Positions 1 to 2,353 of a stretch of DNA of 2,353 nucleotides are shown one piece after another. Position 1 is the stretch's first letter; each line of letters opens with the position of its first letter. The translations under genes were made by a program, and so were the position numbers. Source of the stretch: Escherichia coli (GTDB lineage Bacteria > Pseudomonadota > Gammaproteobacteria > Enterobacterales > Enterobacteriaceae); assembly GCF_024298765.1 (NCBI RefSeq), contig NZ_CP101219.1; one strand, given 5' to 3'. The notes under the pieces are model-generated. The model saw only the letters and a list, made by a program, of their open reading frames with translations, did not search any database and was not told the DNA's origin.

Positions 1-120
1 TGTCAGTCCTTCGTTCTTCGCTCGCCGTCTGATTTCGCTTGCGAGTCTGTTATTTACTCTAAGGGTGATAACCTTAGTTCTCTGCCGTACTTCTGAACCA
101 CTACGTTTATTTTTAGCCAT
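1..120 (-). CDS. N-terminal segment of an RHH-domain protein, candidate MbeC/MobC-like mobilisation accessory protein. Start codon at 120-118; the frame runs off the window start.
   Basis: Minus-strand translation from ATG(120-118) gives MAKNKRSGSEVRQRTKVITLRVNNRLASEIRRRAKNEGLT, with no stop before position 1. KVITLRV followed by NNRLASEIRRRAKNEG is the beta-strand plus first helix of a ribbon-helix-helix fold. A GGAGAG Shine-Dalgarno (plus-strand ctctcc, 129-134) sits 8 nt upstream of the ATG. Not in the ORF track because it is truncated at the window edge. Confidence 0.6.
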   Translation of the reverse strand, partial: MAKNKRSGSEVRQRTKVITLRVNNRLASEIRRRAKNEGLT

Positions 121-140
121 CGCAATGACTCTCCATTTTG

Positions 141-240
141 CACGTTTGGGGTGTCGGGGCTTGCCCTGACAGGAGGTATTCTCATGCAAGCGAATGTATT
201 CGCGGTATGACGAATACACATCCTGTCCCATTTTCCGCTA
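141..240. other. Candidate origin of transfer (oriT/bom-like) of the ColE1/MOBP5(HEN) type, upstream of the RHH gene start.
   Basis: GGGGTGTCGGGGC at 148-160 matches, from my recollection, the GGGTGTCGGGGC motif next to the bom/nic region of pBR322 and pUC backbones. It is followed by a GGGCttGCCC hairpin and nested inverted repeats GCGAATgtATTCGC (189-202) and GTATTCG-N9-CGAATAC (195-217). Its position just upstream of an MbeC-like gene matches ColE1-type MOB module layout. The nick site cannot be located by eye. Confidence 0.35.
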
Positions 241-540
241 CAACTTTTCGACGAAAATAAAATACCGCGTCGTAACTTGGTATTTCTGATACAAAAAAAG
301 ATGCTTTATTCAATATTATTTACACAGATTTTAAAAGTTATTGTTTGTTATTTAATAAATAACGCAAAATTAATTTAATCTTTTGTTCTTTGTCGTTTTT
401 TGATTATTGACTAAATAAAGATTATGTCTTCCTGATTATATAATCTATTGCCTGTTAGTGATACGGAGTGCGTCCAGAGAACAGGAGGCAGAAGAGCAAG
501 ATAGTAGCATGTGCATAAAATACAAAATTGTGAGTTATTG

Positions 541-552
541 ATATCGCGATTA
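541..552. repeat. Recurring palindromic motif ATCGCGAT, here as the 12-mer ATATCGCGATTA; further copies at 1181-1188 and 1519-1530.
   Basis: Exact 12-mer ATATCGCGATTA at 541-552 and 1519-1530 (the latter inside the 5' part of rep); 8-bp palindrome ATCGCGAT also at 1181-1188. Three copies of a specific 8-bp palindrome in 2.35 kb of mostly AT-rich DNA is far above chance. Confidence 0.5.
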
Positions 553-597
553 TATATTAAAAATATGACTTAATATTGCTCTTAATATTTATTTTTC

Positions 598-1200
598 CCT
601 CGCAATGGGAGCATTAATCACCGTACAGTGCTCCGCCAGATGCTGGCGGCCTCAAATCCACCAAGCCGCCACGGTTCCGGCAGCGCCTTGAGCGCAACCG
701 GAAACCGACTGGGGAGAACCCCAGACCCCCACCGCTGCAACATCATCGGTCTGCGACCACCTACCAACCGAGTGGCTGCCTGTACCGTGCAAACGGGCTT
801 TGCAGGGGGCTGGCGCGGTTCCTGGCGACCTGAAAGCCCCTGGTTAGGGGTATCGGCGCGCCTGGCTTCCTGAAACCCTCTGTAAGCGTTTTTCGCGCCT
901 TCCATGCCCTGACGGGCATTTAGACCCCGTTTTGTGCGTTTGGGAAGTTCTGAGCGCGTTTAACAGATGGCCAGCGACTCGATCGCCTAGAATCAAATCG
1001 GGATCATCAACGATATGCGAGAGGTGGCACCGCTCGCCGCAGCCCCAGCGACCGAGCCGCCAGGCTCGCGAGTGGGCGAGGAAGCGGAAGGGAATCTGAT
1101 TCAACATAGTGCACTTACGCACAGAATTTGGCCTACGCGCCCGCGTCCGTGCACACGTTTAATAAGAATTAAGAAGGGAAATCGCGATAAACCGCGCCAA
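598..1200. other. GC-rich island with no credible coding frame; candidate structured noncoding RNA or cis-acting DNA element, function unknown.
   Basis: Abrupt change from AT-rich flanks to G/C-majority sequence. The four ORFs in the track here (63-95 aa) overlap on both strands and are Arg/Trp/Gly/Pro-rich, as expected for chance frames in GC-rich DNA. Hairpins: CCGCCAG-atg-CTGGCGG (633-649); nested CGGTTCCGG...GCGC-cttga-GCGC...CCGGAAACCG (672-707); CCCCT-ggtt-AGGGG (837-850); ATGCCC-tgac-GGGCAT (904-919). Palindromes: GGCGCGCC (855-862), CTCGCGAG (about 1064-1071), GTGCAC at 1110-1115 and 1149-1154. Confidence 0.4.
821..880 (+). repeat. Imperfect 20-bp direct repeat CCTGGCnnCCTGAAAnCC (821-840 and 861-880) flanking a hairpin and the GGCGCGCC palindrome.
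   Basis: cctggcgacctgaaagcccc versus cctggcttcctgaaaccctc, 16 of 20 identical, start-to-start spacing 40 bp. A third CTGGCG copy lies at 810-815. Confidence 0.5.
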
Positions 1201-1332
1201 TCCTAGAATCTAATGATCAGGATATTGATCTAACGTATCAGAATAGAGCATCTAACATATCAATCTCTTGATACTTAAAATATTAATTGTTTGTTTTTTG
1301 CTCACCTTTGATGTGCTTTAATTGATATTTAA

Positions 1333-1352
1333 GGTATCAGAATTGTGATACC
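1333..1352. repeat. Palindromic operator/iteron 1: GGTATCA-gaattg-TGATACC.
   Basis: Perfect 7-bp inverted arms with a 6-bp spacer, read directly from the sequence. Confidence 0.6.
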
Positions 1353-1367
1353 AGTCGATTCGGTTTA

Positions 1368-1396
1368 TTGACATCTGGAGATTTTTTCTTGATAGT
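1368..1396 (+). promoter_or_regulatory. Candidate sigma70 promoter of rep: -35 TTGACA (1368-1373), 17-bp spacer, -10 GATAGT (1391-1396).
   Basis: Consensus -35 hexamer; the -10 matches TATAAT at 4 of 6 positions; ideal 17-bp spacing; correctly placed about 40 bp upstream of the rep ATG. Confidence 0.45.
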
Positions 1397-1398
1397 CG

Positions 1399-1420
1399 AG
1401 GTATCAGTTTATTGATACCT
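1399..1420. repeat. Palindromic operator/iteron 2: AGGTATCA-gtttat-TGATACCT, overlapping the predicted rep transcription start and just upstream of the RBS.
   Basis: Perfect 8-bp inverted arms with a 6-bp spacer; same core as operator 1, centre-to-centre spacing about 67 bp; lies between the candidate -10 (1391-1396) and the Shine-Dalgarno (1421-1425). Confidence 0.6.
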
Positions 1421-1434
1421 GAGGGTGTAAAATA

Positions 1435-1968
1435 ATGAGCAAGGCTTTAAACAAACGATTTAGTGAAAATCCTTTCATCAAAGATTTGATAATTCCTGTA
1501 AAAAACAAACAAGTAAGAATATCGCGATTAGGAGAAGATAATAACATAATGATTAACCAATCAACTGGAGAGGTTTTAGGGGGAACTTCGGTAGTAACTT
1601 ATAAAAAAGTTGATAGTGATAATTTTATTAAATTGTTTACCCAAAATATAAAATTGGCTTTCGAGTTAACACAAGCTGGTCAAAAAGCACTATTTGTTTT
1701 ATTTTGGGCAGTACAAAATAAAACAAATAATGATCTAGTCTTATTAGATCAATACACGCTAAATGATTTTATAAATGAAAACAAAGGTTTAACTATGTCC
1801 CTTCCAACATTCAAACGTGGGCTTGGGGAGTTGGTAAAATCACAAATATTAGCAATGAATAAGCGAAAGGGATTTTATTATATAAATCCTAATTTTGTTT
1901 TTAATGGTGATAGAGTTGCATTCACAACAGTTCTTGAAATGAATAAATCGAGTCATAAAGATAAATGA
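1435..1968 (+). CDS. repL: Plasmid replication protein, RepL family (177 aa).
   Basis: Intact ORF with ATG and Shine-Dalgarno, low-GC codon usage. C-terminal pattern ...LPTFKRGLGELVKSQILAMNKRKGFYYINPNFVFNGD resembles the winged-helix region and the conserved NP...GD motif I recall from RepL proteins such as staphylococcal pSN2 RepL. Palindromic operators and a promoter lie directly upstream. Family assignment is from recalled similarity, not a search. Confidence 0.6.
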   Translation: MSKALNKRFSENPFIKDLIIPVKNKQVRISRLGEDNNIMINQSTGEVLGGTSVVTYKKVDSDNFIKLFTQNIKLAFELTQAGQKALFVLFWAVQNKTNNDLVLLDQYTLNDFINENKGLTMSLPTFKRGLGELVKSQILAMNKRKGFYYINPNFVFNGDRVAFTTVLEMNKSSHKDK

Positions 1969-1978
1969 CAATGTATTA

Positions 1979-2018
1979 AAACCCGCCAAATTGGAATTTC
2001 AAATTTATTGGCGGGTTT
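1979..2018. terminator. Candidate bidirectional intrinsic terminator between the convergent rep and RHH genes.
   Basis: Perfect 11-bp stem AAACCCGCCAA (1979-1989) / TTGGCGGGTTT (2008-2018) with an 18-nt AT-rich loop. It is flanked by T/A-rich sequence on both strands, 11 nt after the rep stop and 30 nt after the RHH gene stop. The loop is longer than typical, hence moderate confidence. Confidence 0.5.
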
Positions 2019-2047
2019 AATATTCGTGACGGCTAGCGCCGAAGATT

Positions 2048-2353
2048 TTAGCTAAATGTGTTTGAGCCAGGATATTTATTTTTATGATGCCGTTTTATTA
2101 TTTTTATTTCCTGTTTTAATAAATCCATTTGATTATATATATCAGAAATTCGCTTCGTTACTATTTTCATTTCATCGCAAAGTAAAATTATTTTATGCAT
2201 CACCTCGAGGTACTCTTTATCCTTCGGCCGCTTTCCCTTATCAAATAATTTCTTCTGCATCCGACCAAGTCGGATTAATTCATATAAATACCTGGAAGGT
2301 ACGCGCTGTTTTATTTCATTATTTAAACTTGCCGTCCTGATATATTCTGAAAT
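2048..2353 (-). CDS. C-terminal segment of the same RHH protein if the molecule is circular. The frame is open from the window end (2353) to the TAA stop at 2050-2048.
   Basis: The reverse complement of 2261-2353 translates without a stop as ISEYIRTASLNNEIKQRVPSRYLYELIRLGR and continues into the 70-aa ORF listed at 2048..2260. Codon boundaries land exactly on 2353 and on position 1, so ...EGLT (ending at position 1) joins ISEYIRTASL (starting at 2353) in frame. This completes the second RHH helix (GLT-ISEYIR). Combined protein is 141 aa. Confidence 0.5.
   Translation of the reverse strand: MSEYIRTASLNNEIKQRVPSRYLYELIRLGRMQKKLFDKGKRPKDKEYLEVMHKIILLCDEMKIVTKRISDIYNQMDLLKQEIKIIKRHHKNKYPGSNTFS

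Follow-up and report, generated by a model that had tools for sequence, protein, structure and literature searches.

A reading frame that leaves a DNA record at one end and re-enters at the other raises the question of whether the record is a fragment of something larger or a complete circle opened inside a gene. We examined this question for a 2,353-bp stretch of Escherichia coli DNA (the window, at its full length). On the minus strand, positions 120..1 comprise 40 full codons that start with an ATG at 120..118, and the last codon ends exactly at base 1 (translation, MAKNKRSGSEVRQRTKVITLRVNNRLASEIRRRAKNEGLT). The minus-strand frame entering at 2353 starts with a full codon (translation beginning ISEYIRTASLNN) and is open for 101 codons to a TAA stop at 2050..2048; the remaining two minus frames entering there reach stops after 9 and 10 codons. 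When the 303-nt segment (31% GC) was shuffled 20,000 times, the frame stayed open in just 2 cases. The two halves join in frame, as the initial annotation had proposed, to give a single gene, mobA (minus strand; codons 1-40 at 1..120 and codons 41-141 plus the stop at 2048..2353), which encodes a protein of 141 aa.

The first part of mobA encodes the β-strand and helix 1 of a ribbon-helix-helix (RHH) domain. The second encodes helix 2 and the conserved segment LGRMQKKLF...GKR..DKEY, followed by a ~45-aa tail at the C-terminus that IncI-type NikA (110 aa) lacks. The joined protein belongs to the MobA family (NCBIfam NF041264, 96.1 bits over residues 12-96, against a curated cut-off of 80) and to the NikA-like family (Pfam PF21983, E = 2e-15, residues 12-78). 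Residues 6-51 align without gaps to the RHH domain of R64 NikA (PDB 2BA3, E = 1.4e-6). All three matches span residues 40 and 41, and the RHH domain thus aligns across the junction, as anticipated. The protein is 43% identical over 101 aa to the MobA/NikA homologue that an IncI-gamma/K1 plasmid encodes ahead of its relaxase; against MobA of pOSAK1 the identity is 42%. Judged by these matches, the RHH gene of the initial annotation is specifically that of a NikA/MobA relaxosome accessory protein.

We then compared known plasmids with a doubled copy of the window. Plasmid pGF4-H (NZ_CP172225.1, 2354 bp, RefSeq, flagged circular) aligned over its full length at 99.66% identity, with positions 1-2354 matching doubled-window positions 1095-3447 and a single 1-nt indel located away from the junction. 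A junction probe consisting of the last 300 and first 300 bases aligned to internal positions 961-1560 of pGF4-H over 600 of 600 bases, with one mismatch and no gap. Plasmid pVTB448v-6 (NZ_CP178700.1, 2356 bp, circular) matched over its whole length at 98.1%, and four plasmids of 2461-2630 bp likewise aligned around the circle at 92-93%. Both the pGF4-H and the pVTB448v-6 records were opened at a different base, and therefore the 141-aa mobA lies intact within them. Because these two plasmids match over their whole length with mobA intact, the window corresponds to exactly one unit whose ends have no missing or duplicated bases. The suggestion that the window is a whole mini-plasmid is thereby borne out, since pGF4-H is collinear with it from end to end after rotation. 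Support for a circle is about as strong as comparison of records allows, and on this evidence the window is a known circular plasmid of E. coli, 2.35 kb in size, present as a single whole copy and linearised inside mobA. It belongs to the plasmids typed 'Col(MG828)'. The apparent splitting of the gene is an artefact of coordinates on a circle opened within mobA, and it implies no new biology.

The second gene, repL (1435..1968, plus strand), encodes a 177-aa RepL-family replication protein. It matched Pfam PF05732 (E = 1.5e-9, residues 37-168) and had no match in NCBIfam or PHROG; its orthologues in RefSeq records are labelled 'replication/maintenance protein RepL'. Upstream, at 1234..1419 on the plus strand, motif enrichment, repeats and a promoter scan point to candidate RepL binding sites and a putative repL promoter. 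This region contains the palindromes GGTATCAGAATTGTGATACC (1333-1352) and GGTATCAGTTTATTGATACC (1400-1419), a palindrome half-site (1234-1241) and, between the palindromes, a promoter-like pair of TTGACA (1368-1373) and GATAGT (1391-1396). The motif GGTATCAG occurred 8 times against 1.0 expected, a count reached in 0 of 200 shuffles, and the two palindromes are probable binding sites for RepL. Within repL, a near-perfect 19-nt inverted repeat (1688..1732; 18 of 19 pairs, 7-nt loop) is present in close repL alleles and absent from the IncX3 cointegrate allele; it may act in cis from within the gene and, like the two palindromes, is a candidate for an origin bound by RepL. Between the convergent repL and mobA lies a hairpin, AAACCCGCCAA...TTGGCGGGTTT (1974..2022), with a fold z-score of -4.6 that was equalled in 0 of 200 shuffles. 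The hairpin is likely a bidirectional terminator, and the Rfam matches there were weak, sub-threshold sRNA hits only. We rejected assignment to the ColE1-type (RNA-primed) replicons: RNAI was not found in the window at E <= 1, while ColE1 and L014 matched at 74-81 bits, and the RNAI/RNAII control region is absent. Homology to ColE1 is confined to one element (~1000-1125) and does not amount to membership. Replication would instead be supplied by RepL, acting with the palindromic sites upstream of its gene.

The earlier count of two genes, repL and the RHH gene, is right, as the other ORFs are at most 95 aa long. The large noncoding regions of the initial annotation do have content, namely an R64-type oriT, a widely shared GC-rich module that contains a ColE1 ori-to-bom homologue, and palindromic sites upstream of repL. 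An AT-rich spacer (236..659, 28-30% GC), delimited by composition, the ORF list and conservation in relatives, contains no convincing ORF and is common only to mobA-bearing relatives. A single DnaA box with the perfect consensus, TTATGCACA, lies in it at 518..510 on the minus strand, and a scan for DnaA boxes gave no enrichment over shuffles.

Next to the spacer lies a discrete, non-coding module of 466 bp (660..1125, plus strand, ~60% GC). Small plasmids of enterobacteria with different rep genes, over 880 in number, share it at 78-95% identity. In the loci inspected it lies on the strand of the rep gene, and its core (877-919, 43 nt) is identical in an Arsenophonus plasmid. The longest of the remaining ORFs fall in this GC-rich segment, which lacks a coding signature: variable columns are spread evenly over codon positions (60/59/58), and 1-nt indels break the frame. 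The right end of the module (1000..1125, plus strand) is homologous to the ColE1 ori-to-bom segment, both by blastn (window 1016-1089 against ColE1 1295-1364, E = 2e-6) and by a module profile (ColE1 1295-1407, E = 1e-15; pOSAK1, E = 5e-19; the ColE1-type replicon of L014, E = 3e-19). For orientation, the ColE1 coordinates are 645-749 for RNAI and 1510-1519 for the oriT box. The ColE1 segment between ori and bom contains the PriA (factor Y / n') primosome assembly site. The GC-rich module of the window probably primes synthesis on single-stranded DNA. For the left 340 bp of the module (660-1000), the profile detected no ColE1 counterpart. This part is non-coding, hairpin-rich and sharply bounded, and the initiator genes of its carriers are of three or more unrelated kinds. 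The 'Col(MG828)' replicon probe appears to detect this part, though it is paired with different rep genes. We tentatively suggest that 660-1000 might be an undescribed cis-acting element, for example an initiator-independent leading-strand or single-strand priming origin working with the adjacent ColE1-homologous segment. If so, 'Col(MG828)' would mark no replicon type in the usual sense.

Directly upstream of mobA, at 148..235 on the plus strand, lies an oriT of the IncI-complex (R64) type, identified by homology and conserved motifs and compared with the description of the R64 oriT core in PMC4743918. Positions 148-234 are ~76% identical to the sequence upstream of mobA and the relaxase gene in IncI-complex plasmids. 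The oriT has a conserved box in two parts (GGGGTGTCGGGGC at 148-160 and GCCCTGAC at 163-170). Positions 168-227 form an inverted repeat of ~20 bp with imperfect pairing, and the motif of the nick region is CACATCCTGTCCC (217-229), all on the plus strand. Both GGGGTGTCGGGGC and the nick-region sequence CACATCCTGTCC are invariant among the window, the IncI-gamma/K1 plasmid, pOSAK1 and one oriT of a 1.5-kb plasmid, and the region folds as single-stranded DNA with a z-score of -3.0. The oriT motifs start 28 bp upstream of the mobA ATG, in the same order as in the IncI-gamma/K1 plasmid and pOSAK1. By analogy with RP4 and R64, the nick presumably falls between G225 and T226 of the plus strand. From this predicted nick, base 226 onward would enter the recipient first and mobA last.

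A partner relaxase gene of the nikB type is absent directly downstream of mobA, where the terminator hairpin and the convergent repL lie instead, and the ORF list contains no relaxase-size ORF anywhere in the window, the ORFs other than the two genes being non-coding by substitution pattern. The relaxase is likewise missing downstream of nikA in the described nikA-only plasmids. Most likely the plasmid hitches along in transfer, using a relaxase and mating channel supplied by an IncI-complex plasmid, in the manner of pCERC7 and NTP16. In such a scheme, MobA would bind its own oriT; a NikB-type relaxase of a co-resident IncI-complex plasmid (I1, B/O, K or Z) would be recruited and would nick between ATCCTG and the following T; and the type IV secretion system of the helper would export the plus strand. 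The comparisons establish that the molecule is circular, to which family its MobA belongs, that its oriT is homologous and that it has no relaxase; in-trans mobilisation, the choice of helper, the site of the nick and the function of the GC-rich module are inferred. Possible helpers are common in the same hosts, since 1761 PLSDB plasmids encode NikA-like proteins and 1556 of these are conjugative. According to Moran & Hall 2017 as relayed in PMC9282650, pCERC7, NTP16 and pU302S carry NikA and an R64-like oriT without NikB. PMC9282650 gives NTP16 as the sole nikA-only plasmid tried with R64, and it was mobilised. Plasmid pEC156, which has an R64-type oriT only, was also mobilised by R64 (PMC4743918). 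Against the model, pU302S was not mobilised by IncP and only weakly by F, in a study that did not include IncI (PMC9282650). The limited identity of MobA to IncI-type NikA and its extra tail also count against the model, in which MobA would have to partner NikB, and the true helper could come from another plasmid group. Taken jointly, we consider it highly probable that the window is a 2353-bp circle opened in mobA that replicates by RepL, with mobilisation in trans by an IncI-complex helper as its most likely means of transfer.

Other readings of the window concern its topology, its RHH protein and its helper. The window might be a linear excerpt of a larger molecule, either an integrated copy or a unit of a tandem multimer, with no free circle behind it. 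Precedents for integration exist, in that the 79.8-kb NZ_KR905387.1 contains an integrated copy of a related small plasmid and a RepL-plus-module plasmid is inserted between two ddp1 genes of the IncX3 plasmid pKP2-NDM1. However, a piece taken arbitrarily from a cointegrate or multimer would not start and stop at the same base of the circle, as the window does when set against the free circular pGF4-H, and a multimer would imply the same monomer anyway. We regard a linear excerpt as very improbable. It is also improbable, though less remotely so, that the RHH protein is a CopG/Arc-type repressor or antitoxin beside a decaying oriT relic on a truly non-mobilisable plasmid. Profiles of the CopG antitoxin (E = 1e-3), the RelB antitoxin (E = 1e-4) and Arc-like repressors do match MobA, though more weakly, and MOB-suite typing in PLSDB labels the closest relatives 'non-mobilizable'. 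That label may be attributable to the missing relaxase and to an oriT identity of 76%, probably below the MOB-suite thresholds. Scores for the MobA and NikA models are much higher and clear the curated cut-off, the similarity reaches past the RHH domain into the NikA-specific LGR.QK.LF..GKR..D.EY segment, and no toxin gene is present in the window. In addition, mobA directly adjoins a matching oriT in the order of nikA-oriT of IncI-complex plasmids, and the nick-region motif is invariant among plasmids whose flanks have diverged.

As to the helper, the relaxase may come from F or from a co-resident mobilisable plasmid, either ColE1-type or another of MOBP/MOBQ, which we consider unlikely. The modest identities to IncI-complex oriTs and NikA are in keeping with such a source, a nikA-only plasmid showed weak transfer by F in PMC9282650, where a better-matched other helper is suggested, and the left oriT box GGGTGTCGGGGC is common to the window and the ColE1 oriT. 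Against this, the nick-region CACATCCTGTCC is of the IncI-complex type and not the ColE1-type TATACTGGCTTA, which is found as a second oriT of the 1.5-kb plasmids, and R64 did mobilise NTP16. An IncI-complex helper remains our preferred reading.

By itself the finding matters little, as a gene split over the ends of a record reflects a circular plasmid opened at an arbitrary base; the plasmid is already known, and a near-identical one in RefSeq has both genes annotated. Gene callers that read such records as linear will miss mobA, and for this reason its annotation is truncated or missing in several public relatives. Due to the conserved R64-type oriT and the plasmid's own NikA-like protein, the capacity of the group to spread with IncI-complex plasmids is probably underestimated by automated typing as 'non-mobilizable'.

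Compared with known systems, pGF4-H (E. coli, chicken meat) and pVTB448v-6 are the same plasmid as the window, with repL and mobA in the same order; the differences amount to a small number of substitutions and one to a few 1-nt indels, and their MobA proteins differ by 1 and 13 residues, respectively. The 2461-2630-bp and 2310-bp 'Col(MG828)' plasmids of E. coli (e.g., CP048294.1 and NZ_CP120562.1) share the backbone of mobA, oriT, AT-rich spacer and GC-rich module at 92-95% and carry 94-279 extra bp at window positions 649-653. In the 2310-bp group, a different, barely alignable RepL-family gene replaces window positions ~1124-2063. The pKL1-like 1.5-kb cryptic plasmids, also typed 'Col(MG828)', share the 466-bp module (84-86%) and an R64-type oriT but use another initiator, a helix-turn-helix RepA of 158 aa, lack mobA and carry an additional ColE1-type oriT in inverted orientation. 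ColE1 itself shares ~110 bp of its ori-to-bom segment with the right end of the module, whereas its RNAI/RNAII replicon is absent from the window.

Like the window, the pCERC7/NTP16/pU302S group and pOSAK1 have a NikA-like gene beside an R64-like oriT with long inverted repeats and lack NikB, and the oriT and MobA of pOSAK1 can be aligned with those of the window. The group is expected to be mobilised by R64 and, according to PMC9282650, is ColE1-like, whereas the window carries repL and lacks RNAI; the NikA of the group is ~107 aa long, compared with 141 aa for MobA. We did not assign the window to this group, which is defined by an identical NikA and a ColE1-like backbone, as it has a RepL replicon and a MobA only 42% identical to that of pOSAK1. 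The nikA-nikB-oriT region of R64 and other IncI-complex plasmids resembles the window in placing oriT immediately upstream of its RHH gene; the RHH domains fall in one fold family (2BA3), and the oriT motifs are shared. In contrast, the window lacks the nikB relaxase and the entire transfer apparatus, and identity is 43% for the protein and 76% for oriT. The oriT-only plasmids pEC156 and pBuzz, the latter mobilised by a B/O plasmid (PMC9282650), can be likened to the window in that they use a helper relaxase in trans through a mimicked IncI-complex oriT. These plasmids have no accessory gene, whereas the window retains its own NikA-like protein.

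The initial annotation had proposed that the ends of the window carry two halves of one ribbon-helix-helix (RHH) gene and that the window is a complete circular replicon. As described there, the minus-strand frame that starts at position 120 comprises 40 full codons (MAKNKRSGSEVRQRTKVITLRVNNRLASEIRRRAKNEGLT) and ends exactly at base 1, and the one that enters at position 2353 opens with a complete codon and reaches a TAA at 2050..2048 after 101 codons (ISEYIRTASLNNEIKQ...). Read as a circle, the minus strand runs ...GAAGGACTGACA/ATTTCAGAATAT... across the 2353/1 junction (slash), giving a single split gene, mobA (120..1 and 2353..2048, minus strand). 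The 2353-side part of mobA has a GC content of 31%. Its open frame is not due to chance, because the frame stayed open just twice when the 303-nt segment was shuffled 20,000 times and the remaining two minus-strand frames from 2353 close after 9 and 10 codons.

The joined 141-aa protein scored 96.1 bits over residues 12-96 against the NCBIfam family NF041264, "plasmid mobilization protein MobA" (curated cut-off, 80 bits), and matched the Pfam NikA-like family PF21983 over residues 12-78 (E = 2e-15). Residues 6-51 aligned without gaps to the solved RHH domain of R64 NikA (PDB 2BA3), with GLT/ISEYIRTASLN of the window protein lying opposite GLTVSAYIRNAALN at the junction. All three matches are continuous through the junction at residues 40/41. 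Matches of the joined protein to the CopG, RelB, and Arc-type RHH families were far weaker. Over 101 residues, MobA shares 43% identity with its counterpart from the IncI complex (IncI-gamma/K1), and this likeness reaches beyond the RHH domain into the segment LGR.QK.LF..GKR..DKEY. Where the public record of a relative is flagged linear and cut within mobA (L003, 2006-2464; L004, 1-321), its mobA annotation is truncated or N-terminally extended, the same end-of-record artefact as the split mobA of the window.

Two circular plasmids in the E. coli complete-genome collection, pGF4-H (NZ_CP172225.1, 2354 bp) and pVTB448v-6 (2356 bp), are 99.66% and 98.1% identical to the window, respectively. All 2354 bases of pGF4-H align to positions 1095-3447 of the doubled window (two tandem copies) with one 1-nt indel. 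A junction probe, consisting of the last 300 and first 300 bases of the window, aligned over 600 of 600 bases to internal positions 961-1560 of pGF4-H with one mismatch. The end-to-end alignment and the internal probe match support the proposed complete circular replicon, and on these sequence comparisons we therefore regard the window as exactly one circular-plasmid unit, opened within mobA. A search of PLSDB returned five records that span the entire window at 92-93% identity, all of them E. coli plasmids of 2.46-2.63 kb typed Col(MG828). One record flagged circular, CP048294.1, carries the 141-aa gene uninterrupted (1419-1844), and the junction probe aligns without gaps to its internal positions 1425-2023. 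At window positions 649-653, the 92-93% relatives have 94-279 additional bases and the flanking alignments overlap by 5 bases (microhomology); these bases are absent from the window, pGF4-H, and pVTB448v-6. Essentially identical plasmids have been deposited and annotated, and this one is already known. The finding is real but ordinary: a circular record cut open in a gene.

Homology, conserved motifs, and predicted folding identify an origin of transfer (oriT; 148-235) directly upstream of mobA. A distant-mode search with window positions 121-300 retrieved conjugative plasmids of 82-192 kb and many mobilizable plasmids at ~76% identity. The matching stretch in an IncFIB/IncI-gamma/K1 plasmid lies immediately upstream of mobA (a nikA homologue), followed by a gene for a ~900-aa relaxase; in pOSAK1 it lies upstream of a solitary mobA. 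The motifs GGGGTGTCGGGGC, CGCGGT, and CACATCCTGTCC are invariant in the alignments, and as single-stranded DNA the oriT is predicted to form a long imperfect hairpin over 168-227 (z = -3.0). RP4/R64-type relaxases cleave after ATCCTG, which presumably places the nick site of the window between G225 and T226 on the plus strand. Nicking at this position would send the spacer and GC-rich module into the recipient first and mobA last. The IncI-gamma/K1 plasmid served as the oriT reference in place of an IncI-type plasmid (NZ_CP032888.1, 3370-3470) in which the CATCCTGTCCCGTTTTTC nick segment is missing upstream of nikA, which may reflect oriT deletion or recombination. The NikA of that plasmid matches the solved fragment of R64 NikA (residues 6-51) at 100% identity.

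The replication gene repL (1435-1968) matches Pfam RepL (E = 1.5e-9). A strong hairpin (1974-2022; z = -4.6) separates the convergent repL and mobA genes. An Rfam scan of the window gave nothing above threshold, and its two weak sRNA matches both fell on this probable terminator hairpin. Palindromes of the GGTATCAG type at 1234-1419 flank a TTGACA/GATAGT promoter-like pair. The motif matches 8 times versus 1 expected, and the palindromes presumably serve RepL as operator or origin sites. A 19-nt inverted repeat within repL itself (1688-1732; 18 of 19 pairs) is kept in close repL alleles and absent from the allele of an IncX3 cointegrate, and might be an intragenic cis site. Comparison with the 2310-bp relatives revealed a swap of the rep cassette (window ~1124-2063 versus 987-1786 of L007): these plasmids retain mobA, oriT, spacer, and module at 92-95% identity, but their RepL-family gene (165 aa) is a different one that can barely be aligned. 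The AT-rich spacer (236-659) holds no convincing gene, judging by the ORF list and composition. It contains a single perfect DnaA-box consensus (TTATGCACA; minus strand, 510-518). DnaA boxes are not enriched (4 matches versus 2.75 expected). A cer-like XerCD multimer resolution site was rejected, since the XerD-arm consensus matched only with 2 mismatches, no more often than expected by chance and nowhere in the spacer. The ORF list of the window includes no relaxase gene, and there is no space for one; the largest other ORFs are at most 95 aa and lie in the GC-rich module.

This module (660-1125) is sharply bounded, has ~60% GC, and alone explains all 883 PLSDB matches. The 466-bp sequence was found at 78-95% identity in several backbones, namely pKL1-like plasmids of 1.5 kb whose Rep is a 158-aa helix-turn-helix protein, RepL plasmids ranging from 2.3 to 8.5 kb, a colicin M plasmid, a Klebsiella plasmid of 1506 bp, and a RepL plasmid integrated in an IncX3 NDM plasmid. 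Module and rep gene share a strand in these loci. The module is non-coding, since variable columns are spread evenly over codon positions (60/59/58) and 1-nt indels break every frame; by the same column counts, a "rep protein" ORF annotated on it in one 1.5-kb record is spurious, and this ORF is disrupted in most relatives. Predicted folding of the plus strand (z = -3.4) and the minus strand (z = -1.6) is no more than suggestive of a structured RNA or single-stranded DNA. RNAalifold found double changes in 2 of 103 pairs among 12 module sequences (covariation term, +1.24), the sequences being too similar for covariation to be informative. A "compensatory" hairpin in the right-hand, ColE1-homologous part had no single register on a hand check. 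A scan of genome contigs for distant module relatives gave only contaminant copies of the 1.5-kb plasmid. These contigs (L022-L040) are short, at 400-2400 bp, and several have a coverage of less than 1. They share 91-97% identity with the 1.5-kb E. coli plasmid, come from assemblies labelled Streptococcus, Streptomyces, Corynebacterium, Clostridium, Mycobacterium, Bradyrhizobium, and others, and almost certainly represent cross-contamination of assemblies.

The right end of the module (~1000-1125) is homologous to a ColE1 stretch ~100 bp past the replication start and ahead of the bom/oriT site (pairwise E = 2e-6). With a module profile, the E value was 1e-15 for ColE1, 5e-19 for pOSAK1, and 3e-19 for a ColE1-type replicon (L014). 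We take this ColE1 segment to hold a PriA-dependent primosome assembly site. From the homology and this presumed site, we infer that the module would serve priming on single-stranded DNA, either the lagging strand or a strand delivered by conjugation.

The left 340 bp (660-1000) are non-coding, hairpin-rich, conserved, and common to >880 small plasmids with unrelated rep genes, and no other part of the window can claim any novelty. Searches by nhmmer with all filters off detected no counterpart of this left part in ColE1, its RNAII/ori region included, or in the leading region or oriT flank of an IncI-complex plasmid. An Arsenophonus nasoniae plasmid (L021, 1833-2051) has an identical copy of the 43-nt core (877-919) between diverged flanks, and there again a small winged-helix gene follows ~220 bp downstream of the core. 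Across the records whose PLSDB typing we compared (L005, L006, L007, L012, L014, L015, and L016), plasmids with RepL, pKL1-type RepA, or other small rep genes all receive the type Col(MG828). So does a ColE1-type plasmid of 4.9 kb, in which the left part occurs alone, right beside an R64-type nick motif. Because this plasmid and plasmids with differing rep genes all receive the same type, the Col(MG828) probe seems to detect the shared non-coding module (660-961), not a replication gene.

The 1.5-kb pKL1-like plasmids have two inversely oriented oriTs (1073-1160, plus strand, and 1230-1319, minus strand, in L006; same in L005), one R64-type (CACATCCTGTCCC) and one ColE1-type (GTATACTGGCTTA), with a GGGTGTCGGGGCGAAGCCCTGACC box common to both. 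The paired oriTs are probably why these plasmids are typed "mobilizable" without a relaxase. In the IncX3 plasmid pKP2-NDM1 (3316-6118), a small plasmid with RepL and the module sits between two oppositely oriented copies of ddp1, an IncX accessory protein gene, and adjoins the IncX3 relaxase gene. This insertion looks like a cointegrate formed at oriT, and it pairs the same backbone with an IncX-type accessory gene in place of mobA.

The window plasmid combines an R64-type oriT with a NikA-like accessory protein of its own and lacks a relaxase and a mating apparatus. The mechanism with the best support is one in which MobA would mark the oriT and a co-resident IncI-complex plasmid would provide NikB and the transfer channel. 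The same hosts offer plenty of possible helpers: NikA-like proteins are encoded on 1761 PLSDB plasmids, of which 1556 are conjugative. Likeness to the IncI-complex system is moderate (43% for the protein, 76% for oriT), MobA carries an additional C-terminal tail of ~45 aa, and the actual helper could come from a different plasmid group. Close relatives are typed "non-mobilizable" by the automated typing of PLSDB, a label that is probably a threshold artefact.

Transfer of this kind has precedents. As relayed in PMC9282650, Moran & Hall 2017 describe pCERC7, NTP16, pU302S, and relatives as encoding a NikA ~53% identical to that of R64 and no NikB, and as sharing a conserved oriT that resembles that of R64 and contains 20-bp inverted repeats; in the same account, R64 mobilises NTP16. 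Plasmid pEC156, with an R64-type oriT alone, is mobilised by R64 (PMC4743918), and pBuzz, with oriTs alone, by a B/O plasmid (PMC9282650). Reviews group such elements as hitchers on a helper relaxase (PMC11389934). The transfer design of the window plasmid falls in this already described class. In contrast to the published nikA-only plasmids, which are of the ColE1 type, the window plasmid is a RepL replicon without RNAI, and its MobA is longer and divergent.
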